The translations under genes were made by a program, and so were the position numbers. DNA of 64,000 bases from Candidatus Bathyarchaeum sp. (GTDB lineage: Archaea > Thermoproteota > Bathyarchaeia > Bathyarchaeales > Bathyarchaeaceae), in NCBI GenBank assembly GCA_020344315.1, contig CP070820.1, positions 237,763 through 301,762 of the forward strand. Reading direction: 5' to 3'. Every line of letters starts with the position of its first letter. Position 1 is the stretch's first letter. A model generated the notes under the pieces. That model saw nothing but the letters and a program-made list of their open reading frames with translations, did no database searches and had not been told where the DNA came from. Below are positions 32,965 to 43,560 of this stretch, one piece after another.

Positions 32965-33573
32965 TCAACTTTCTGTTTTGAAGTGTTTTTGGAAGACATG
33001 CTGGATTTCTTCGGTTTTTTCCAGTATAACGACACCGTCCATGGCGGCTAGTTTTTTGACGTTTTCAACATCTTCTTTTCTCACTCGTATTTTCATTTCT
33101 CGTCCGTCGGGAAGTTGCGTGGCTGCTGTTCCTTCCTTGAGGTCGCAGGGCAGTATGTATACGGGTATGAAGGATTTCAGAGCCATTATCACTGAGTTAG
33201 TTAGTAAAGTGTCCGCTATTCCCGTTGCGATCTTGGCAACGGTATTTCCTGTAGCTGGAGCAATTAGCAAAAATTTTATTTTTTCGCTCTGCAACTGAAC
33301 CGCAAGGGTGGGTACATTCGAGTTAATTTCCACCCGAATTTTATCAAAATTTTCCTTCAAATCCTCAAGGAGCCGGTAAAAGTTTAATATTTGGTTTCCT
33401 GCTTTCGAGAGATATATTGTTATTCTAACTTCATTTTGATATTGCTCCCTGATCTGTTTCATGGTCTCAATTACTTCGTGTAGCCGGTCTCCGCTACCTG
33501 TGATTCCCCAAGCAACCCTCTTCTTCTTCCCCTTTTTTTCGAGTTGCACGGTTCCAACAGCCATTTTCCACAA
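32965..33573 (-). CDS. afpA: Archaeoflavoprotein AfpA (HFCD family)
   Basis: VAWGITGSG, APATGNTVAKIA.GIADTL and R.EDVENV.KL motifs. Confidence 0.85.
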   Translation of the reverse strand: MWKMAVGTVQLEKKGKKKRVAWGITGSGDRLHEVIETMKQIREQYQNEVRITIYLSKAGNQILNFYRLLEDLKENFDKIRVEINSNVPTLAVQLQSEKIKFLLIAPATGNTVAKIATGIADTLLTNSVIMALKSFIPVYILPCDLKEGTAATQLPDGREMKIRVRKEDVENVKKLAAMDGVVILEKTEEIQHVFQKHFKTES

Positions 33574-33575
33574 CT

Positions 33576-34172
33576 CTACTTCTGCTTTTTAATCTCGATT
33601 TTCTTAAGGGCTCCGGCAAATTTTTTAATTGTTTTCTTTAAACTTCTGAAGCCTTCCTTGTCTTCTTTTACGCTTTCAAGAGTATCTTTTGACCAGAAGT
33701 TTGCTCCGAGGTTTGCTCCGAAGGAGCCACCGCTTACGGGTATGATCCCGTTTAGGATGTAAAACGTTAGGATTTGCTGGATTGCCAGTTCCTGTCCTCC
33801 AATTCTGTCTCCCCCAACCGCGACTGCCATGCCTATCTTGTATTTGAGGATGTTGGGGTCTGCGGCTAAGAGGGCTCTGCATCTGTCCATGATGGCTTTT
33901 GTTTGGGCGCTGACTCCTCCATTGTATACTGGGGTGGCAAAAATTATTCCCTCAGCCTCCCTTAGCAGAGCATAAACGGTGTTCATGTCATCCACTATTA
34001 TACATTCATTATGTGTTAGACAGTGGTCGCAGTGGGTGCAGAATCCGATTTTTTTGCCTCTGACAGTGAAAAATTCTGTTTCGAACCCCATCTCCTTCAG
34101 CTTGTTTAGGGCTTCTCTCAAAACGTGTTCTGTTGCACCTTTTCTTGGGCTCCCACATATGCCAACAATCAT
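33576..34172 (-). CDS. Iron-sulfur flavoprotein (Isf) / FMN reductase family
   Basis: GSPR..., C.HCDHC....C...DD, TPVY, K..MDR and GGQE motifs. Confidence 0.88.
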   Translation of the reverse strand: MIVGICGSPRKGATEHVLREALNKLKEMGFETEFFTVRGKKIGFCTHCDHCLTHNECIIVDDMNTVYALLREAEGIIFATPVYNGGVSAQTKAIMDRCRALLAADPNILKYKIGMAVAVGGDRIGGQELAIQQILTFYILNGIIPVSGGSFGANLGANFWSKDTLESVKEDKEGFRSLKKTIKKFAGALKKIEIKKQK

Positions 34173-34336: not shown

Positions 34337-35056
34337 TTGCTGCAAAAAACAATCTTGAAAAGTGATCTATCCAAACCACATCTACCCTTCAATATAAAGA
34401 ATATAGATGGTTCGTTTCCAGGTTTCATGTTTGGCGATTTTGCAGTCCTTCACGGTTCACCAACAATACGGTTTCTCTCATCCCTTCTCTGCGTCAGGGC
34501 TCAACTTCCCCATCAGCTTGGGGGTCTAGGAACAAATGTAGTGTTTGTTGACGGAGGTAACACCTTCAGGTTGTATGAGATTTCCACTTTAGCTCAACTT
34601 CACGAGCTTGACCCTAGTGAAGTCTTAGGAAGAATATTCATTTCTAGAGCATTTACAGCCTATCAGATTACTTCCTTGCTTCTTGACAGACTAGAGGCAG
34701 CGATAGACCGGTGCGATGCGAAACTTGTAATAATTTCAGACATTGCGAGACTATACCTAGACAAGGATGTCCCAAAAAAAGAATCTAAAGAAATCTTTAA
34801 TCAGGTGACAACTCATCTCTCAAAATTCGCGGAAGAAAATCAGGTCATATTGATTGCAACTTATCTTCCCAATCACTCAGCAAGGCGTAATCTCTTCTTC
34901 AAGACAGCAGTTTGTGGACGTAGCAAGGTTGTAGCCTCAATCAAACCATCTAGGTATGGTCAGCGATTTGTTTTAGAAAAACATCCGCATCTCAAGTTAG
35001 GAAGCATGGATTTTCCCTCCAAGAACGTTATACTCTCCAATTTCGTGGGGGCTTGA
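34337..35056 (+). CDS. Inactivated RadA/Rad51-like protein of the PolB2 operon
   Basis: GGLG..VVFVDGGNTF and I.ISRAFTAYQ motifs; Walker A degenerate (HGSPTIRF). Confidence 0.85.
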   Translation: MLQKTILKSDLSKPHLPFNIKNIDGSFPGFMFGDFAVLHGSPTIRFLSSLLCVRAQLPHQLGGLGTNVVFVDGGNTFRLYEISTLAQLHELDPSEVLGRIFISRAFTAYQITSLLLDRLEAAIDRCDAKLVIISDIARLYLDKDVPKKESKEIFNQVTTHLSKFAEENQVILIATYLPNHSARRNLFFKTAVCGRSKVVASIKPSRYGQRFVLEKHPHLKLGSMDFPSKNVILSNFVGA

Positions 35057-35322
35057 ATGTGGGGAGAACCATTGAATCTTACAGAATGGCTCTGGATCGG
35101 GAACTGCAGAAATGGAGTAGCTTTGCAAGAGCTCTACGCAGAGACGAGAGAATAGCTTTCGAGCAGCTGATAGATATATGCAGAAACTATGCGTCTGCGG
35201 GAAGTAACGCCACACGTCCTATACTGTTTGAGCCAATGGTGATGTCGATTCTTTTGCATCAACAACAGATGCTGAACAGATTAGAGAAGATGCTGGATGC
35301 AAAAAGAAAGCAACCCACCTAA
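35053..35322 (+). CDS. Small PolB2-associated protein (arCOG07300-like)
   Basis: GRT..SYR.AL..E...W..F.RALR motif; overlaps both neighbours. Confidence 0.8.
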   Translation: MNVGRTIESYRMALDRELQKWSSFARALRRDERIAFEQLIDICRNYASAGSNATRPILFEPMVMSILLHQQQMLNRLEKMLDAKRKQPT

Positions 35323-37597
35323 CCTTAAGCGTGTTAAAGGTTGGATTTTCGATATTTATCCTTCAGCAATCGGACAGATGAGCGTCTGGATTATCGCAGA
35401 GAACGGTCAAAGAATACGGTTACTAGACGAATTTGATCCAAGAATCTATGTCTCGGGCAGAGAAGAGGATTTGAAGAAACTTCTATCCCAACTCTTCTCG
35501 AATAAGCCCATGCTTTCTTGCAGGTTTGTTTACAAGTACATCATCCCAATCACTAACCGAAAAGCGAAAGTTCTTGAGGTCACGCTGAAAGATTATCAGC
35601 AAAAGCCCTTCTTTGTTCGCAGAATCTTACAAATTGGGCGCCACCGACATTTTCAGGTGCACAACTGCGATTTAAAGCCCGCTCAAGCCTACCTCTATGA
35701 GCGAGACCTTTTTCCTTTAGCCTTTATGGAAGCAGAAGTTGAAGAATACCGCTTGAGAATCCGTCTTCTGGACTCCGTTGAAAGTACTAATTACCTGATT
35801 CCATCTCTAAGAATAACCCGAGCCAGCTTAGAGATCAATAAGAAAAAAAGAATAGCCCGTTTTTCCGATCCGTTAAAAGCAATAGTTCTTTCCAGCGACG
35901 AAAAAGAGGTATTGATAGATTCTGGTGATGAGAAGGATAAACTATTACAGCTGGTCAAGAAAGTTAGAAGACTTGACCCAGACATATTATTAACGAAGGG
36001 TGGCGACTCATTCATTTTTCCTTATCTTGCCAAAAGAGCATTGGTTAACAATGTGTTGAACGAGTTCATTCTGAGCCGAGAAGAAGTTCCCCTTGTTGCT
36101 AAGTACAGGCGAGGCAGATCATATTTCTCGTATGGTAGAACCTATTATCGTTCTCCCACGCGAAGGCTGTACGGCAGAATCCACATCGACGAGAACAACA
36201 CTTTCATCCTGAGAGAAAGCGGCATTTACGGATTAATCGAGATTGCCAGAACCTGCAGAGTGCCCCTGCATAGAGCTTCACGGTCTTCAATTGGAACTAG
36301 TATGTCATCTCTTCAGTATTATCAGGCAATGAAAGACGAGTTTCTGATTCCACGAAACAAACTTGTTGCGGAAGCCTTCAAATCGGCATATGACCTTCTT
36401 GTTGGAGACCGTGGAGGTTTTGTCTATGAGCCTAGAATGGGCATCCACGAAAAGGTTGGTGAAGTTGATTTTTCTTCAATGTATCCGTCATTAATGGCCA
36501 AGTACAACATATCTGCCGAAACTGTTCTTTGTGATTGCTGTCCAGATTCGAAGCTGCGGATTCCTGAGCTTGATTACCACATCTGCGAGAAGAGAAACGG
36601 AATTGTTGCTAAGGTCTTGAGTTTTGCAGTGAAGAAGCGGCTATGTTACAAAAGGCTGGCTAAAGAAACGTCGAATGATGCGTTGCGAGAGGTCTATAAT
36701 AGCCGTCAAGGTGCCTTAAAATGGATATTGGTGACGTGTTTTGGCTATTTGGGGTATAGAAATGCTAAGTTCGGCACTGTTGACGGTCACATGGGTGTCT
36801 GCGCCTTCGGTAGACAAGCACTATTGAAAGCTGCTCATATTGCCGAGAAGAGGGGATTTAGCGTAATTCATGGCATCGTCGATTCTTTATGGTTGAAGAA
36901 TGAGGAGGTGGACCTAAACGATTATGTTAGTTTATGTGATGAGGTGAGTGAAGAGGTTGGGGTGCCTTTAGATTTTGGAGGCTGTTACAAATGGATAGTG
37001 TTTCTTCCCTCTAAAATACATCCAAACGTTCCAGTGCTGAACAGATATTACGGCGTCAAAGAAGACGGCAGTATCAAAGTTAGGGGACTTGAGGTGAGGA
37101 GAAGAGACACTCCTAAATTCGTTTATGCTGCTCAGATGGATATGATTAAGGTGTTATCTTCTGCAGACGATTCTGTGGCCTTTGTTGAGAAAATACCTGA
37201 TGCCTTGAAAGTAATACGAGAGTACCGAAGAAGACTGCTGGATGGAAAAGTGCCAGTCTGGGATTTAATCGTTACAAAGCGACTTTCCAAAGAGCCAGAA
37301 AACTATACCCAGAAGGTCAGTCAATTGATTGCTGCTGAGCAGCTATTGAAAGAGGGGGTTGAAGTCTCAGCTGGAAAAAGTGTCCGTTTTCTATTTACTA
37401 GTGCAGAGAACAGACGTTACGAAAGAAGAGTTAAAGCGAAAGAGTTGATTGAAGAGCAAACCAGTGCGGATGTCAAAAAGTACCTTTCGCTTCTATATTC
37501 AGCGGCTTCAAACATCCTAAGTCCCTTCGGATATTCTCCCAAAGAAGTTTACGACTACGTACGCGGCTATCAGCATGTGAAACTAACTTCATTCTGA
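35297..37597 (+). CDS. polB2: Family B DNA polymerase, PolB2 subfamily
   Basis: DFSSMYPS, RQ.ALK...FGYLGY, motif C HGIVDS instead of YGDTDS, and RG.E.RRRD. Confidence 0.92.
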   Translation: MQKESNPPNLKRVKGWIFDIYPSAIGQMSVWIIAENGQRIRLLDEFDPRIYVSGREEDLKKLLSQLFSNKPMLSCRFVYKYIIPITNRKAKVLEVTLKDYQQKPFFVRRILQIGRHRHFQVHNCDLKPAQAYLYERDLFPLAFMEAEVEEYRLRIRLLDSVESTNYLIPSLRITRASLEINKKKRIARFSDPLKAIVLSSDEKEVLIDSGDEKDKLLQLVKKVRRLDPDILLTKGGDSFIFPYLAKRALVNNVLNEFILSREEVPLVAKYRRGRSYFSYGRTYYRSPTRRLYGRIHIDENNTFILRESGIYGLIEIARTCRVPLHRASRSSIGTSMSSLQYYQAMKDEFLIPRNKLVAEAFKSAYDLLVGDRGGFVYEPRMGIHEKVGEVDFSSMYPSLMAKYNISAETVLCDCCPDSKLRIPELDYHICEKRNGIVAKVLSFAVKKRLCYKRLAKETSNDALREVYNSRQGALKWILVTCFGYLGYRNAKFGTVDGHMGVCAFGRQALLKAAHIAEKRGFSVIHGIVDSLWLKNEEVDLNDYVSLCDEVSEEVGVPLDFGGCYKWIVFLPSKIHPNVPVLNRYYGVKEDGSIKVRGLEVRRRDTPKFVYAAQMDMIKVLSSADDSVAFVEKIPDALKVIREYRRRLLDGKVPVWDLIVTKRLSKEPENYTQKVSQLIAAEQLLKEGVEVSAGKSVRFLFTSAENRRYERRVKAKELIEEQTSADVKKYLSLLYSAASNILSPFGYSPKEVYDYVRGYQHVKLTSF

Positions 37598-37662: not shown

Positions 37663-38412
37663 TTATCGCTTCAATTCTTCAACAAGTTTTACGATTTGTT
37701 CTATTATGTACTCGTTTATTCGTTGTCCTTTCTCAGCCGATGCTATTGTCGGGTCGCCCATCACTCCACTTGGGAAGTATCGCTCAGGATCTGGAATTAT
37801 CTCGAACCTTGGCAGGTTTGGAAAGCTTCGTTTTCCCTTTCCTTTTATCAGGTCTGATCGAATGGCCATTACTCTTGAAGTCTCGATTGTGCCAGCGTGG
37901 GAATCTCTTTCATCAAATTCTTTGCCTTTAAGGTCGAATGCGAAGTCGTAATCTGAGCAGACTATGATTCGGGATTTTCCGGCTTCGTTCTTATGCTTAG
38001 TTACGACCTCTTTGGCTGCAAGTTTGAGCGCAGTCATATGTGATCTACCCGCATGGCCGGTTATGATCAGCAATCTCTTGAAGCCATTGCGGATGAGTTC
38101 CTCTAGAATATCAGTCATTATGCTGCGCAATGAATCAAAGCTTAGCGTAAGAGTGCCGGGAAAGTTTCTTGTGGAATTGCAGACACCGTACCTTAAGGGC
38201 GGCGCAACTAGGCAGTCAGCTTTCTGGGCGACTTCTAGAGCAACATACTCTGCTTGAAGACTGTCTGTGCAAAGCGGTAGATGAGTGCCATGTTCTTCGA
38301 CGCTTCCACAAGGAATAATAACAACTTTGCCCTCTTCAGCCGCTTTCTCTGCTTCTTTCATACTGAGTTCGTCAAACCACAAATTCTTGTTTTCGCCTGA
38401 ATTTGTACACAT
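37663..38412 (-). CDS. Creatininase / amidohydrolase family protein
   Basis: GSVEEHG.HLP..TD, GH.G, HAG..ETS and SGV.GDP..AS.EKG motifs. Confidence 0.9.
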   Translation of the reverse strand: MCTNSGENKNLWFDELSMKEAEKAAEEGKVVIIPCGSVEEHGTHLPLCTDSLQAEYVALEVAQKADCLVAPPLRYGVCNSTRNFPGTLTLSFDSLRSIMTDILEELIRNGFKRLLIITGHAGRSHMTALKLAAKEVVTKHKNEAGKSRIIVCSDYDFAFDLKGKEFDERDSHAGTIETSRVMAIRSDLIKGKGKRSFPNLPRFEIIPDPERYFPSGVMGDPTIASAEKGQRINEYIIEQIVKLVEELKR

Positions 38413-38464
38413 GTGAATTCTTCTCCTTTTCCTCACAATCAAATGAAATAGAACGTACGTTATT

Positions 38465-39547
38465 TCAGTTTTTGATGACCTTTACGGTTTGTTCGTAGTA
38501 GCGAGGACCATAAGTTAGCGTGATTTGATGGAACACCTTGGTTCGGGTAACTACTTTTTCAAGATTTCCCTCAACCAGAACCTGCTCACCCCGTTTCGCC
38601 TGCATCCTGAACTCCTCCATATACGAGAATATCCGCTTAATCTCGTCAACTTTCGGTCCTTCTATGACATCGCGAACCTCAATCTGGTAAATCGATGGAA
38701 TAAATGGAGCATCGGCATCGTCACTTATCTCGGCTACTGCCTTGATCCAGCCTACATTGATTATCCGCGTATCCTTGTTGTATTCATTGCAGATTTCATT
38801 CCACTCCTTCACTGGCTCAAACTCTGCCTTAACAACTCTCCTTCCAGCTTTAGGTTTGAAAAGACTGTAGATCATTTTTCTTTGTTGATGCCAAAGATAC
38901 TCTCTCGGACTGTAATTCACGAACTGCCAATTCTTTCCCTGAATAGCCTTTTTGCTAGAAAACTCATTTCGCAGAGAGTCGTCTTCCAGATAAAGGTCCT
39001 CTAACGTCCCACAAAGTTTTTTCAGTTTTTTTCTGCTGTAAACGATGAGGTCCAAGTCTGAAAAGTTGGGGTGATAGAAACCGTGAAGGAGAGACCCGAA
39101 GACTCCGAAATCTATTTCCGATAATCCTGACTTGGATGAAACCAGTGCAAAGAGGTCCTCTAACGCTCTGTGAAGAGCGTCCTCAGGTTCTTTTGCAATC
39201 TGCTTTCGCAATCCGACGTCTGGTTTCCGGGCTTCCATTATATCTTCTTCATTTACTCCCACTAGACATTTCTGCAAGGGTTCATGAAAAATTGTGTATT
39301 GTGGATATTTTTCGCGAACTAAGTTTAGTCCCTCGTCTGCGAAGAATTTGTAGTAGAGTGGTTGTTTTTTTCCTCTACGAGCTCTGGGGTTCGGGGACTG
39401 GAAGATGTTTGCTGACGCGTATTCTGGGTCACAGACATAAGCGTTAGAAGGGTGGATGTAGCCGTAAACCCGAAAAATTATCCCGTCCTCAGTAACTATA
39501 GCGTCACGGTCTCTAAGCTTCAACAACTTATTCGTCTCCACAATCAA
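38465..39547 (-). CDS. COG1665-like Pol-beta-superfamily nucleotidyltransferase (paralog 1)
   Basis: RDRD..., F.V.GY.HP, GVFGS.L.G....SDLDL.VY and PSIY motifs; OB-like C-terminus. Confidence 0.8.
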   Translation of the reverse strand: MIVETNKLLKLRDRDAIVTEDGIIFRVYGYIHPSNAYVCDPEYASANIFQSPNPRARRGKKQPLYYKFFADEGLNLVREKYPQYTIFHEPLQKCLVGVNEEDIMEARKPDVGLRKQIAKEPEDALHRALEDLFALVSSKSGLSEIDFGVFGSLLHGFYHPNFSDLDLIVYSRKKLKKLCGTLEDLYLEDDSLRNEFSSKKAIQGKNWQFVNYSPREYLWHQQRKMIYSLFKPKAGRRVVKAEFEPVKEWNEICNEYNKDTRIINVGWIKAVAEISDDADAPFIPSIYQIEVRDVIEGPKVDEIKRIFSYMEEFRMQAKRGEQVLVEGNLEKVVTRTKVFHQITLTYGPRYYEQTVKVIKN

Positions 39548-40584
39548 CGTAAAAGGGGTTCAATATACTCTTTCTCGCGTGTGGCAGTTCCCACCACAAC
39601 CTGATGGTATGCTTCGCCTGTTTCAACGTTTTCTACACATTCCAGCGTTCCCGAAACCTTGATGCCTTCTCTCTGACGAGCCACATTTCTGTAGTATCCA
39701 ATCATCGAGAGAACCTTTGTTGGAACTTGCTCTTCCGTAAGTTCTGACGCTGGGTCGTCTGGTTGGTAGTTCCTGATCTGGTAGATTGCAGGTCTAAACA
39801 TGTTCTCGCTGTCATCAACAACCATGCAACTGAATGTGACATTCTTAATGGGCATATATCTGAATCGTCCATACTGGGCATTGATCTCCTCAGGCTTTCT
39901 CACCGCATTATACACGAAACGCCTATCTTCATAGCGTCCACGATGCTTCCTTGCCCTATCAATCTTCTTAGTGAAAACATACTTCAACCGGCCTTCCCCA
40001 ACAAGCCTATCAACAGTTCTCTCTAATTTCCTGAAGTTCTGAGAACCGTAAACCACAAGGTCAATGTCAGAATATACTGAATGCATATTTAGCCCAACAG
40101 ACCCGTGGATTCCGAAATCTTCGAGGGCCACCTGCGATTCGTTGGAGAGAAGCGAGACAAGCTCAACAGCTTCTTTTTGCAGCCTATCTTTCTTATCTCT
40201 TTTGACGAGCTTCTGTAGACACTCGTTTGGCAGATAAACTCTTTCTATATTTTCATATGGAACGCTCAAAACTTCCTTGTTCAGATATGGACAAGAATAC
40301 AGGTAATTAGGAAATCTGCGTCGAAAAGTTTCCGAGAACGTTTGATAGTTCTTGGCTGTGTAGAGTTTCTCTGGTCTGGCTAGTTCTATGTTTCCAAGTT
40401 TCCACTTCTGTCTGAGAAAACGTATTGGAAAAATGGACTTCAAGTTGGAGGGAATGTATTTCAGAAAAGCGAATACGCGATTGTCCGGATGCTTATACCC
40501 AAAAACGTAGAAGATATGGCTCTCTCTCGTGAGAAGGGTTTCTCCGTCTCTAGGAATCCAATCTTTTGCATCCAAATTGTCCAT
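39544..40584 (-). CDS. COG1665-like nucleotidyltransferase (paralog 2)
   Basis: F.V.GY.HP, LKY.P, GIHGS......SDIDLVVYG, PAIY and G.LE.V motifs; stop overlaps the paralog 1 start. Confidence 0.8.
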   Translation of the reverse strand: MDNLDAKDWIPRDGETLLTRESHIFYVFGYKHPDNRVFAFLKYIPSNLKSIFPIRFLRQKWKLGNIELARPEKLYTAKNYQTFSETFRRRFPNYLYSCPYLNKEVLSVPYENIERVYLPNECLQKLVKRDKKDRLQKEAVELVSLLSNESQVALEDFGIHGSVGLNMHSVYSDIDLVVYGSQNFRKLERTVDRLVGEGRLKYVFTKKIDRARKHRGRYEDRRFVYNAVRKPEEINAQYGRFRYMPIKNVTFSCMVVDDSENMFRPAIYQIRNYQPDDPASELTEEQVPTKVLSMIGYYRNVARQREGIKVSGTLECVENVETGEAYHQVVVGTATREKEYIEPLLR

Positions 40585-40793
40585 CTCCACGGTGAAATGA
40601 AGTAACTTCGATGAGTATATTCCTCTCCCAATCTTCCATCCCTTATTATCTTTAAGTTTTCCTGAATGAACATTAAAAATAGACAATTACGTTCCCAGAT
40701 TGACAACTTGACAAAGGGCTGTTTCTGGAAAGGAAGAGAGGTAACTGTTAATAGAAATCTCGACTAATTGAAATTTGCTGTGGAGGAACGCAG

Positions 40794-41498
40794 ATGGAGA
40801 ATCAATCGGGTTGGAAGGCGAAAATAGCATTCTTTTGTTATCTTGCATTGGCTGGCGGAATTCTTCTGGGGGGAATTATTGTGGCTTTCATTTTGCTTGG
40901 CATGGGACTCGACTATCAAGAATTGACTTTTCCAATTGCTCTCATATCTCTTCCAATCAATGAAGGCATAATCCTCGGAATCACACTAATATTTGCTAAA
41001 CATAAAGGTGCGAGTTTGAAAGATCTGGGTTTGAAAAAGCCAAAACTCAACATCCTGTTGCTTGTATCGGTTGCTGCAGTGTTCCTTATTCTGCTTGCTG
41101 TCACCATTTCTGTCATTGAAGAATTTATTCTTGGTCCAGACCCGATGGCGGAAGACCTTGTGCAGGTTCTGCTGCCTCGTAACTTGCTTCAACTGGTTGC
41201 CATAGTTGGTCTCTCACTGGCTCTAGTTGGGCCAGCTGAAGAATTAGCTTTTAGAGGTTTCGTTCAGAGAGGGTTCGAAAATTCGTTTGGGAAAGCAGGG
41301 GGATTGTTGATTGCCTCGATCTTATTTGGGCTCTTGCATGGACTCAATTCTTTGCGTGCTATAATTCCCGTATTTGTTGTTAGTTTGGTTTTGGGTTATA
41401 TATGGCAGAAAACTGATGGAAATACCACCACCACAGCTTGGATGCATGGACTGTACGATGCAATAACCATATCAATAGCCTATTTTGCTTCTGTCTAA
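40794..41498 (+). CDS. CPBP/Abi (CAAX type II) intramembrane metalloprotease
   Basis: EELAFRG, FG.LH and H..YD motifs. Confidence 0.9.
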   Translation: MENQSGWKAKIAFFCYLALAGGILLGGIIVAFILLGMGLDYQELTFPIALISLPINEGIILGITLIFAKHKGASLKDLGLKKPKLNILLLVSVAAVFLILLAVTISVIEEFILGPDPMAEDLVQVLLPRNLLQLVAIVGLSLALVGPAEELAFRGFVQRGFENSFGKAGGLLIASILFGLLHGLNSLRAIIPVFVVSLVLGYIWQKTDGNTTTTAWMHGLYDAITISIAYFASV

Positions 41499-41536
41499 AG
41501 ACCAAATATAATAATTGCCTTAGGGCTAATGAGAGT

Positions 41537-42583
41537 ATGCAAGGTTTCAGGGACCGGGATTTCCTTCAAACCAACGAAGGATTTTTCTTCTGTGTAGTTG
41601 GACCATTGCACCCACCAAAACGAGTCATCTCCTACCTTAAATATGTCCCATCAGAATCCGGAGTCTGGGGAAAAGGCGAAAAAAAATTCAGCCGAATATT
41701 ACAGAAATATACGATTCCAAACCTGCTGAAAACCTTCAATTTTCTAGAGCGAAACTATCCTCATTACCTGTTTCATTCCCACGTAGACAACATTACGCTA
41801 ACCGCTGTTCCCCACAAGAACATAGAAACGCATTTCAAACCAGAACCAAAACTTTCTCAACTGAGACTAGCTTCACAGTCAGATTCGCTGCAGAGAAAAC
41901 TGATTAGATTCACAAAGTTTTTGGAGGAGATAAGTGGTGTGCCAAGCGGCTCTTTCGGGGTAACCGGCTCTCTTCTTCTCGATATTCATCAACCCACATT
42001 TTCGGATCTCGACATAACAGTATATGGCATAAAGAACAGCTGGGCACTAAGAAATACCTTAACCGAAAACCGCAACTCTGAAATGCCTATTAAACGTGTC
42101 GTGGGAAAACCTCTTGAATGGTGGTGTGCCAAGAAATCTAGGCAATATCCGTTGACGGCTGCGGAAGCATCGAAGATATATGAACGGAAGTGGAACCTCG
42201 GATTTTTTGAGGATACATGGTTCTCTATTCATCCAGTTAAGCTGGAAAGCGAGGTTGCGGAAAGATATGGACAAAAGATTCACTATCCCTGTAGTCAAGT
42301 AACGATCCGCGCGGTTGTATGCAACAATAGAGACTCGCTGTTTCTTCCCGCAATCTATCAACTAGAAGAAGTGAATGTTATGGAGGGTCCTCGGTTAGGG
42401 AAGATAACTGAGGTGGTTTCTTACGAGAGTCTCTATGACAGTCTAGCTGAAACCGGCGACGTAATCATAGCTATGGGCAAACTTGAGCGTGTCTTGGACA
42501 AGGGAACCAGCCGAGAATCGTACCGTGTCTTGGTTGGTTCTCCTGAAGGCAAAGGTAAAGAATACATAAAATTGCAGGATTAG
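41537..42583 (+). CDS. COG1665-like nucleotidyltransferase (paralog 3)
   Basis: RDRDF, V.G..HP, LKY.P, GVTGS.LL......SDLDI.VYG, PAIY and GKLERV motifs. Confidence 0.8.
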   Translation: MQGFRDRDFLQTNEGFFFCVVGPLHPPKRVISYLKYVPSESGVWGKGEKKFSRILQKYTIPNLLKTFNFLERNYPHYLFHSHVDNITLTAVPHKNIETHFKPEPKLSQLRLASQSDSLQRKLIRFTKFLEEISGVPSGSFGVTGSLLLDIHQPTFSDLDITVYGIKNSWALRNTLTENRNSEMPIKRVVGKPLEWWCAKKSRQYPLTAAEASKIYERKWNLGFFEDTWFSIHPVKLESEVAERYGQKIHYPCSQVTIRAVVCNNRDSLFLPAIYQLEEVNVMEGPRLGKITEVVSYESLYDSLAETGDVIIAMGKLERVLDKGTSRESYRVLVGSPEGKGKEYIKLQD

Positions 42584-42594
42584 CCTCTGGCGGG

Positions 42595-43560
42595 CTACTC
42601 CAGCTCCAGTATCTCTTTTAGATAAGCTCGGAACGGACCAAGCTTGCCTCCGTAGTTTCCAGCTGTAATCTTTACAACGCCTGGAACTTTAACTGCCGCC
42701 TTTATTCCTTCAGCCATAGCCTTTTTCACAACCTTCTGGTTCAAGCCATTTATCACTATCTCGTAGACACTTTCAACGTCCTCAGGAACCACGGTGTCTG
42801 GTACAAGCTTCTTCACTGTCGGACAGTACGGATGATTGGTGGATGCGGGAAGCTTGTAATTCACGGATCCAACCTTAGAGCCTGATCCGCAGATCCCGCC
42901 TGGGAAGGGCATGATTACCCCCCGAACATTCTTGCTAATTGCCGCTTTAGCATCCTCTGACGCTTTGAGACCGGCCTTCCAGTCTTTCGCCAAGATTATG
43001 ATGTTTCCGCTGGCAACAGCCTTCATGGCGCCGAAGTTGTCTTCAACCATGAATTCGCCTTCCATGATTGGGATGCGCCAAACTTTCCTTCCCGCAATCT
43101 CGTCGCTCTTCTGGAAGCCGTCGGCGAAGAGGCGCAGGCTTCTTCCCACTTTCAGTCTTCTTTTTGCCTTAGGTAGAGCGTCGAAGGCTGCTGTGGTTGG
43201 GCATGTCATGATGCTTTGTCCGATTCTCAGGCTCATCTGGGCCTTGAGACCGCTCCTTGTTGTGTGGTAGATTTGGATAATTGCTCCTGGGCGTCCATCC
43301 GGGGTTTCTTTGGGCGACACTGTGCCTTCTAATGCCGCTTCTGCTGGTGACATAATAATTGAGGATGCAAATCCAGTTGCGGTTCTTGCCGCAATTAAAG
43401 CCCACTTCTCATTGGCAGCAGTTATCAATATCCTGCCTGCCCACATGGGGAACATTTCAGCGAATGTATCATCTATTATTGTTCCAGTTTTTAGAATGTA
43501 TCCCCTTTCGTCTTTTTTGACTACAGGGATACCGGCTACTTCTCCTAACTTGGTTGCCAT
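42595..43560 (-). CDS. ftr: Formylmethanofuran:H4MPT formyltransferase (start uncertain)
   Basis: IDDTFAE.F, TPDGRPG, RIGQ...TCPT, PFPGG..SGSKVGS, ASTN..YCPT and AGNYGGKLG motifs. Confidence 0.95.
   Translation of the reverse strand: MATKLGEVAGIPVVKKDERGYILKTGTIIDDTFAEMFPMWAGRILITAANEKWALIAARTATGFASSIIMSPAEAALEGTVSPKETPDGRPGAIIQIYHTTRSGLKAQMSLRIGQSIMTCPTTAAFDALPKAKRRLKVGRSLRLFADGFQKSDEIAGRKVWRIPIMEGEFMVEDNFGAMKAVASGNIIILAKDWKAGLKASEDAKAAISKNVRGVIMPFPGGICGSGSKVGSVNYKLPASTNHPYCPTVKKLVPDTVVPEDVESVYEIVINGLNQKVVKKAMAEGIKAAVKVPGVVKITAGNYGGKLGPFRAYLKEILELE

Follow-up and report, generated by a model that had tools for sequence, protein, structure and literature searches.

CitG and MdcB make 2'-(5''-triphosphoribosyl)-3'-dephospho-CoA from ATP, and CitX and MdcG transfer the triphosphoribosyl-dephospho-CoA to the hydroxyl of a serine, releasing pyrophosphate. 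To our knowledge, this chemistry is known only for the prosthetic groups of carrier proteins. In both systems, CitG/CitX of citrate lyase and MdcB/MdcG of malonate decarboxylase, a CitG-family gene is paired with a gene of the nucleotidyltransferase (NTase) type. We know of no enzyme assigned to the attachment of ribose 5-phosphate or hydroxyglutarate to the methanopterin side chain, and a full-text literature search found no paper assigning these steps. Two further groups of described proteins bear on the locus studied here, namely the minimal or Pol-beta NTases (PF01909; MenT, Pol X, TUTases and CD-NTases) and the creatininase family (PF02633; creatininase, MftE, ArfB and IolN). Here, we describe three paralogous NTase genes, B, C and E, on a 64-kb stretch (the window) of contig CP070820.1 of Candidatus Bathyarchaeum sp. 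By motif and modelled fold, their products belong to an old family of Pol-beta nucleotidyltransferases, which has four members with three domains each. The steady partner of this family across genomes is a homologue of CitG, not the creatininase-family and CPBP genes that lie beside the NTase genes in the window. We give a probability of about 0.5 to the reading that the CitG homologue and the NTases perform a phosphoribosyl transfer like that of CitG and CitX, which builds or rebuilds a methanopterin-type side chain.

Positions below are those of the window unless given as G000:C1, which marks contig coordinates of this genome. The genes at the locus are as follows.

37663-38442, minus strand: creatininase-family metal hydrolase gene (PF02633, E 4.4e-62), last in the C-B unit.
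38465-39547, minus strand: open reading frame of NTase paralog B, 360 aa (PF01909, 26.9 bits against a cut-off of 21).
39544-40575, minus strand: NTase paralog C, 343 aa from Met38, in a frame open up to 40686.
40794-41498, plus strand: CPBP/Rce1-like intramembrane protease gene (PF02517, E 4.2e-18), directly upstream of E.
41537-42583, plus strand: NTase paralog E, 348 aa from the ATG at 41537, in a frame that opens at 41438.
42595-43560, minus strand: ftr, formylmethanofuran:tetrahydromethanopterin formyltransferase (PF01913, PF02741; NF002554, 402 bits against a cut-off of 297).

An earlier, sequence-only reading of this DNA had described three NTase genes together with a CPBP gene and a creatininase gene, and all five open reading frames were present at these positions. 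Its description of divergent proteins of about 350 aa also held, with pairwise identities of 24-28% among B, C and E (BLASTP E 1e-20 to 6e-36). The start of C was set at Met38 (position 40575) by the starts of database homologues, and the conserved part of E begins at the ATG given above. The stop of C overlaps the start of B in TTGA and the creatininase gene begins 22 nt after the end of B, as expected of the coupled pair with a following creatininase gene that had been proposed. The list of open reading frames likewise placed the third NTase, E, downstream of the CPBP gene in a divergent unit, at a spacing of 38 nt or with an overlap. The ftr gene and E are convergent and 12 nt apart. The label COG1665, which had been attached to the NTases, was not confirmed, and a full-text literature search on COG1665 found no paper. 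A fourth paralog, NT4, which the earlier reading lacked, was found outside the window at G000:C1:351608-352633(-), 72 kb away, where it adjoins a gene for a 239-aa ECF S-component-like membrane protein and a DUF763 gene.

Conserved motifs were determined from an alignment of 68 sequences, 17 for each paralog group (B, C, E and NT4), with the residue numbering of B. G151, S152, D164 and D166 were invariant in all four groups, as were H32, P33, P109, G148, Y170, P284, Y287, G327 and E330. E251, a candidate third catalytic carboxylate, was nearly invariant. The claim that all three NTases keep their catalytic aspartates is therefore upheld by D164 and D166, and the spacing of the motif, given before as GS-x(10-11)-SD(L/I)D, is corrected to GS-x(9-10)-SD[LI]D. 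Against PF01909, C scored below the cut-off and E had no match.

The AlphaFold model of B (pLDDT 95.2) showed three domains: a small N-terminal beta-barrel (residues 1-118), a Pol-beta palm (about 121-252) and a C-terminal OB fold (262-360). The palm aligned with 8an4_A at Z 7.5 (root-mean-square deviation 2.8, 90 residues aligned) and with 4p4m_A at Z 7.4, which are middling values, and it resembled MenT1, Pol beta, TdT, a cGAS-like receptor, Trf4 and TUT7 at Z 7.2-7.5. The tail resembled the OB folds of SSB, MCM-N and RPA at Z ~7 (3ulp_A, Z 7.1), and the OB-like tail that had been noticed earlier is thus real in this model. When folded alone (pLDDT 92.5), the N-terminal domain reached a best Z of 4.1, to small barrels of the Sm/KOW/Tudor type, and gave no usable match. 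A Foldseek search of the PDB with the model of B returned nothing at E <=0.001, and a sequence search of the PDB gave a chance match only (E 0.24). By motif and modelled fold, the family is one of Pol-beta nucleotidyltransferases. It shares the hG[GS] and DxD motifs, the PF01909 match on B and a palm at Z ~7 with the minimal and Pol-beta NTases; however, only the palm of about 130 residues is alike, the flanking domains and gene neighbours differ, and there was no PADLOC match. No described system matched the three NTases by sequence in Pfam, NCBIfam, the PDB or PADLOC, as the sequence-only reading had stated. A predicted complex of B and C scored 0.13 against a mark of 0.32, which is uninformative either way. 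A role in defence was considered and rejected, with no PADLOC match for six proteins (the four paralogs, the creatininase-family protein and the CPBP protein).

The modelled domains also bear on a different explanation, in which the NTases act on RNA or DNA, for example in the tagging or repair of tRNA or RNA 3' ends, with the OB fold and the N-terminal barrel binding nucleic acid and the CitG neighbourhood reflecting some other shared regulation. The palm is like those of MenT1 (a tRNA NTase toxin), Trf4, TUT7, GLD-2, the CCA-adding enzyme and Pol X, the tail is like the OB folds of SSB, RPA and MCM, and the N-terminal domain is like Sm/KOW-type barrels. However, all of these Z values are at or below 7.5, a range rated common, and no RNA-processing genes recur beside the NTase family. 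With the phyletic pattern and the gene fusion reported below also pointing elsewhere, we regard action on nucleic acids as unlikely.

The age of the paralogs was assessed from their distribution and from trees. A profile search of 1.84 billion representative proteins returned 1468 relatives of the NTases at E <=0.001 and 465 at E <=1e-30, and clusters of three or four copies were present in 37 of 41 relatives from 12 families of the order. In an IQ-TREE quick tree of 68 rows (LG+C20+F+G4), each paralog group formed one side of a branch, with support of 100 for both B and C, 99 for NT4 and a weak 60 for E. Because the groups had been labelled beforehand by the best phmmer match to the four copies of this genome, labels and sequences are not independent, and the tree tests only whether each pre-set label holds together. 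A FastTree of 393 rows agreed, with the same four groups. From these sequence comparisons, the paralogs are old and form four separate clades across many families of Bathyarchaeia. A search for longer, fused forms of the NTases found none, which is weak evidence. The view that the three represent old clades, each conserved separately and with its catalytic motif intact, was borne out by the trees and by the 68-sequence alignment. Two outcomes had been named as contradicting the sequence-only reading: one, a recent lineage-specific expansion, was not what the trees showed, and the other, a lack of linkage of the CPBP and creatininase genes to the NTases in related genomes, was found beyond the genus.

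Gene neighbourhoods were compared in 80 species-level loci centred on orthologues of B, with a reach of 8 kb. Paralog C was present in 71 of them, NT4 in 55, CitG (PF01874) in 48, MobB in 33, E in 9 and Ftr in 5, and an ECF S-component membrane protein in 34, or 38 with a hidden Markov model. Among the 33 loci whose flanks reached the full 8 kb, CitG, NT4, the S component and MobB were present in 24, 23, 21 and 18, respectively. The usual order was MobB, C, B, NT4, membrane protein and CitG, and in 65 of the 71 loci holding both genes, B followed C within 30 nt. The membrane protein is an ECF S component, as Pfam S-component models matched 14 of 24 and 11 of 24 members, and a profile of the 24 members had FolT as its best match among solved structures (4z7f_A, E 8.5e-6), followed by RibU. 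In other genomes, ftr was located within 1.5 kb of paralog E in 13 of 23 E-type rows, among which two pairs are the same contig fetched twice. The steady partner of the NTase family is thus the CitG homologue and not the creatininase or CPBP gene.

The creatininase and CPBP genes were each found in 1 of the 80 loci, in both cases in L028, which is the same contig as the same-genus locus L005. Both were missing from the 14 loci (L008-L020) that represent other families of the order. The orthologue of the creatininase gene, at 73-85% identity, was found in 20 of the 24 genomes of the genus and only there; the four genomes without it are 58-94% complete, and copies outside the genus were at most 36% identical and on other contigs. 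The creatininase-family protein matched PF02633 over its full length (210 bits against a cut-off of 31.3). However, it fell below the NCBIfam equivalog cut-offs of creatininase, MftE, IolN and ArfB (scores of 138 against 235, 110 against 172, 75 against 245 and 24 against 180), so its substrate is not assignable from known members, and its link to NTases was seen in one genus only.

The sequence-only reading had joined the NTases, the creatininase-family hydrolase and the CPBP protease into one dedicated pathway or complex. In favour of this reading within the genus, the order of flavoprotein, FMN reductase, creatininase, B, C, AsnB-like PP-loop protein, CPBP, E and Ftr was kept in six same-genus loci (L005, L006 and L021-L024), the spacing on both sides is tight in the window, and the creatininase orthologue is widespread in the genus. 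On the other hand, a seventh same-genus locus, L007 of genome G006, had no CPBP gene at this place, and elsewhere the NTases cluster without either gene. The CPBP gene may also be there for another reason. Its product matched PF02517 with 65.9 bits against a cut-off of 22.4 and had weak matches of the myxosortase type, below the NCBIfam cut-offs, and a gene for an exosortase (EpsH)-like membrane protein adjoins ftr in same-genus relatives (L005:13253-14521, L007:4086-5105). These two findings suggest that the CPBP protein belongs with the exosortase-like protein as a protein-sorting pair. In the list of open reading frames of the window, no exosortase-like frame follows ftr. The CPBP gene and the creatininase-family gene are neighbours of the NTases at the level of the genus and do not belong to the core of the module, and their proposed role as pathway partners was not upheld. 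A dedicated pathway with them in this genus is very doubtful and may be a local addition at most.

For the phyletic pattern, 251 genomes with a completeness of 85% or more were searched, which form an even sample of the phylum. The NTase family was detected in 121 of them and CitG in 121, with 114 holding both, 7 the family alone, 7 CitG alone and 123 neither, counts that come from related, non-independent genomes and are a pattern, not a statistical test. Joint presence or absence in 237 of the 251 genomes argues against the action of the NTases on RNA or DNA, as does their not being found in other whole families of the phylum (for example, 0/37 and 0/22), which would be odd for a core RNA function. 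RFAP synthase (TIGR00144), which catalyses the committed step of methanopterin synthesis, was found in 96 genomes, of which 90 hold the NTase family. In three whole families, RFAP synthase was found in 0/4, 0/6 and 0/3 genomes and the NTases in 4/4, 6/6 and 3/3. Since 31 of the 121 family-positive genomes, this one included, are without RFAP synthase, the NTase family is not bound to de novo synthesis. In a set of 14 named control genomes, CitG was matched in E. coli and in four archaea (M. jannaschii, H. volcanii, S. acidocaldarius and M. acetivorans), the same four as RFAP synthase, and CitD was matched in E. coli alone.

Sulfolobaceae (Sulfurisphaera, Sulfolobus acidocaldarius, Acidianus and Metallosphaera by source name) carry a single NTase copy of about 300 aa, which directly adjoins citG in both of the genomes examined (G241 and G075). 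In G241 (L111:173-3230), four overlapping genes on one strand encode DUF1464, NTase, CitG and a metallophosphoesterase, a run that amounts to a condensed form of the module in archaea that are both cultured and tractable. The order of NTase and then citG, with an overlap in G241, is that of citX and then citG in E. coli.

A link to pterins came from P0208, a protein of 505 aa in which a domain of the pterin pyrophosphokinase HPPK (PF01288, E 3e-40, residues 8-134) is fused to a member of the NTase family (residues 173-496, E 2.2e-71). Its nearest labelled tree rows were NT4, and a metagenome scan with P0208 found two loci only, matching the HPPK part alone. This fusion to a pterin kinase is a further point against a nucleic-acid substrate of the NTases.

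The genome of this Candidatus Bathyarchaeum sp. is one contig of 1.56 Mb and 88% complete. It holds Ftr, Mch, CitG (G000:C1:323586-324467) and the four NTases, and RFAP synthase, MptD (PF04038), the MptE-like protein (PF01973) and GCHY-1 (PF02649) were not found in it. Given the completeness of 88% and the presence of RFAP synthase in two same-genus genomes, the absence of these families here is a lead and not established. This genome may depend on an outside source of the pterin core. The carriers CitD (TIGR01608) and MdcC (TIGR03130) were also not found in this genome at that completeness, and a canonical role of its CitG in citrate lyase or malonate decarboxylase was rejected, as neither carrier was found.

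By analogy with CitG and CitX, the CitG homologue and the NTases may act in two steps. In the first, modelled on CitG and MdcB acting on dephospho-CoA, the CitG-like enzyme would use ATP to place a 5-triphosphoribosyl group on the ribitol hydroxyl of a pterin-arylamine-ribitol intermediate. In the second, the NTases, working in the manner of CitX and MdcG, would join the alpha-phosphate to the hydroxyl of an acceptor, for example 2-hydroxyglutarate, and release pyrophosphate. This would create one or more phosphodiester links in a methanopterin-type side chain, and the several paralogs could serve several acceptors or form a hetero-oligomer. The proposed logic, a triphosphoribosyl compound made first and then transferred to a hydroxyl with loss of pyrophosphate, is that of CitG/CitX, and so is the genomic coupling of a CitG-family gene to an NTase, seen here in 48 of 80 loci, in 24 of the 33 with full flanks and as co-occurrence in 114 genomes. 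The systems differ in other respects. CitX has 183 aa, whereas the NTases here have 300-360 aa and three domains (barrel, palm and OB fold); there are up to four NTase paralogs; and, unlike in CitG/CitX and MdcB/MdcG, no CitD or MdcC carrier was found. The acceptor is presumably a small molecule. By the sequence comparisons made here, the NTase family, which would work like CitX and MdcG, is not a member of either.

The link to methanopterin draws on the literature, on the FolT-like transporter and the HPPK fusion, and on the patterns of Ftr and RFAP synthase. In methylotrophs, the CitG-like gene orf7 is reportedly needed for methanopterin synthesis, with mutants lacking the cofactor. A study of methanotrophs describes an mch-orf5-orf7 island (PMC3615186). 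In a Methylomonas gene table, mch and a glutamate ligase gene are followed by one named triphosphoribosyl-dephospho-CoA synthase (PMC11533326). According to a third paper, the dephospho-H4MPT of M. extorquens has no phosphate and no hydroxyglutarate (PMC8141765). The FolT-like S component, together with the retention of the module in many genomes that have no RFAP synthase, suggests that the module can also put a new side chain on a pterin core taken up from outside.

Several findings weigh against a CitG/CitX-like synthesis of the methanopterin side chain. The NTases had no match to CitX (PF03802) or MdcG in a Pfam scan at E up to 10, and hhalign gave a probability of 0.56% for the 68-row NTase profile against E. 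coli CitX, a comparison of low power with a single-sequence template. All three NTase domains resemble nucleic-acid-binding modules (the palm at about Z 7, the SSB-type tail and, weakly, the Sm/KOW-like N-terminal domain). Six genomes with RFAP synthase are without the NTase family, besides the 31 of the opposite kind, and the co-occurrence counts carry the non-independence noted above. The parts are scattered in this genome, with CitG at 323.6 kb and NT4 at 351.6 kb. MobB, found in 33 of the 80 loci, is not accounted for by the proposed pathway. Finally, the HPPK fusion is represented by P0208 alone, a cluster of one member that occurred on two contigs.

Some of these findings also bear on the idea that CitG and the NTases make another phosphoribosyl-linked product, such as a prosthetic group on a carrier protein or the side chain of another cofactor, for example molybdopterin dinucleotide. 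Such a product would suit the recurrence of MobB, the family-positive genomes without RFAP synthase and the carrier-protein prosthetic groups to which the known CitG/CitX chemistry is limited. However, the links to HPPK, Ftr, the FolT-like transporter and RFAP synthase point to a pterin one-carbon (C1) carrier, and neither CitD nor MdcC was found in this genome. We consider a different product quite unlikely.

If the methanopterin-type side chain is indeed the product, a bolder proposal can be made, which we hold to be speculative and unlikely in its full form. Bathyarchaeia would make, or rebuild after FolT-like uptake, a methanopterin analogue with multiple phosphodiesters, for which CitG would supply the donor and each of the four NTases would add a different unit. 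Genomes like this one, with the methanopterin-dependent Ftr and Mch and none of the four core pterin and arylamine step families found, would re-tail a scavenged pterin, and the creatininase-type amidohydrolase of the genus would trim the imported form.

The uncharacterised NTase family provides concrete gene candidates for the unassigned steps of methanopterin side-chain synthesis, and the Sulfolobaceae, which are cultured and genetically tractable and have a single copy beside citG, make the idea directly testable. The pattern also hints that many uncultured Bathyarchaeia rely on a salvaged C1 cofactor, which bears on their ecology and culturing.

Other genes were observed around the NTase cluster. 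A block at 34337-37597 of the window contains a RadA/Rad51-like ATPase gene (239 aa), an 89-aa open reading frame and a family-B DNA polymerase gene (766 aa), the product of which had NCBIfam matches below their cut-offs. The block sits between the FMN-reductase and creatininase genes, and the same two genes are adjacent in the same-genus genome G014 (L005). It was in no fetched locus of relatives, and a search for repeats flanking the polymerase insertion gave short, chance-level ones only. The block may be an inserted element. In same-genus relatives, a gene for an AsnB-type PP-loop protein with a zinc ribbon and no glutaminase domain lies between C and the CPBP gene (L005:9202-10269). It is absent here between window positions 40686 and 40794, and the nearest copy in this genome has 53% identity and one in-frame TAG and lies 540 kb away (G000:C1:816786-817754). 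Genes for a flavoprotein (PF02441) and an FMN reductase (PF03358) were found repeatedly close to the NTase cluster, both in this genus and in two further families, at the following positions.

32965-34172 of the window: flavoprotein/FMN-reductase genes.
L010:10231-10812: flavoprotein/FMN-reductase genes.
L008:9881-10603: flavoprotein/FMN-reductase genes.

In one other family, a gene for an HD-domain (HD_3/YfbR-like) phosphohydrolase is located between NTase C and NTase B (L008:5007-5564).

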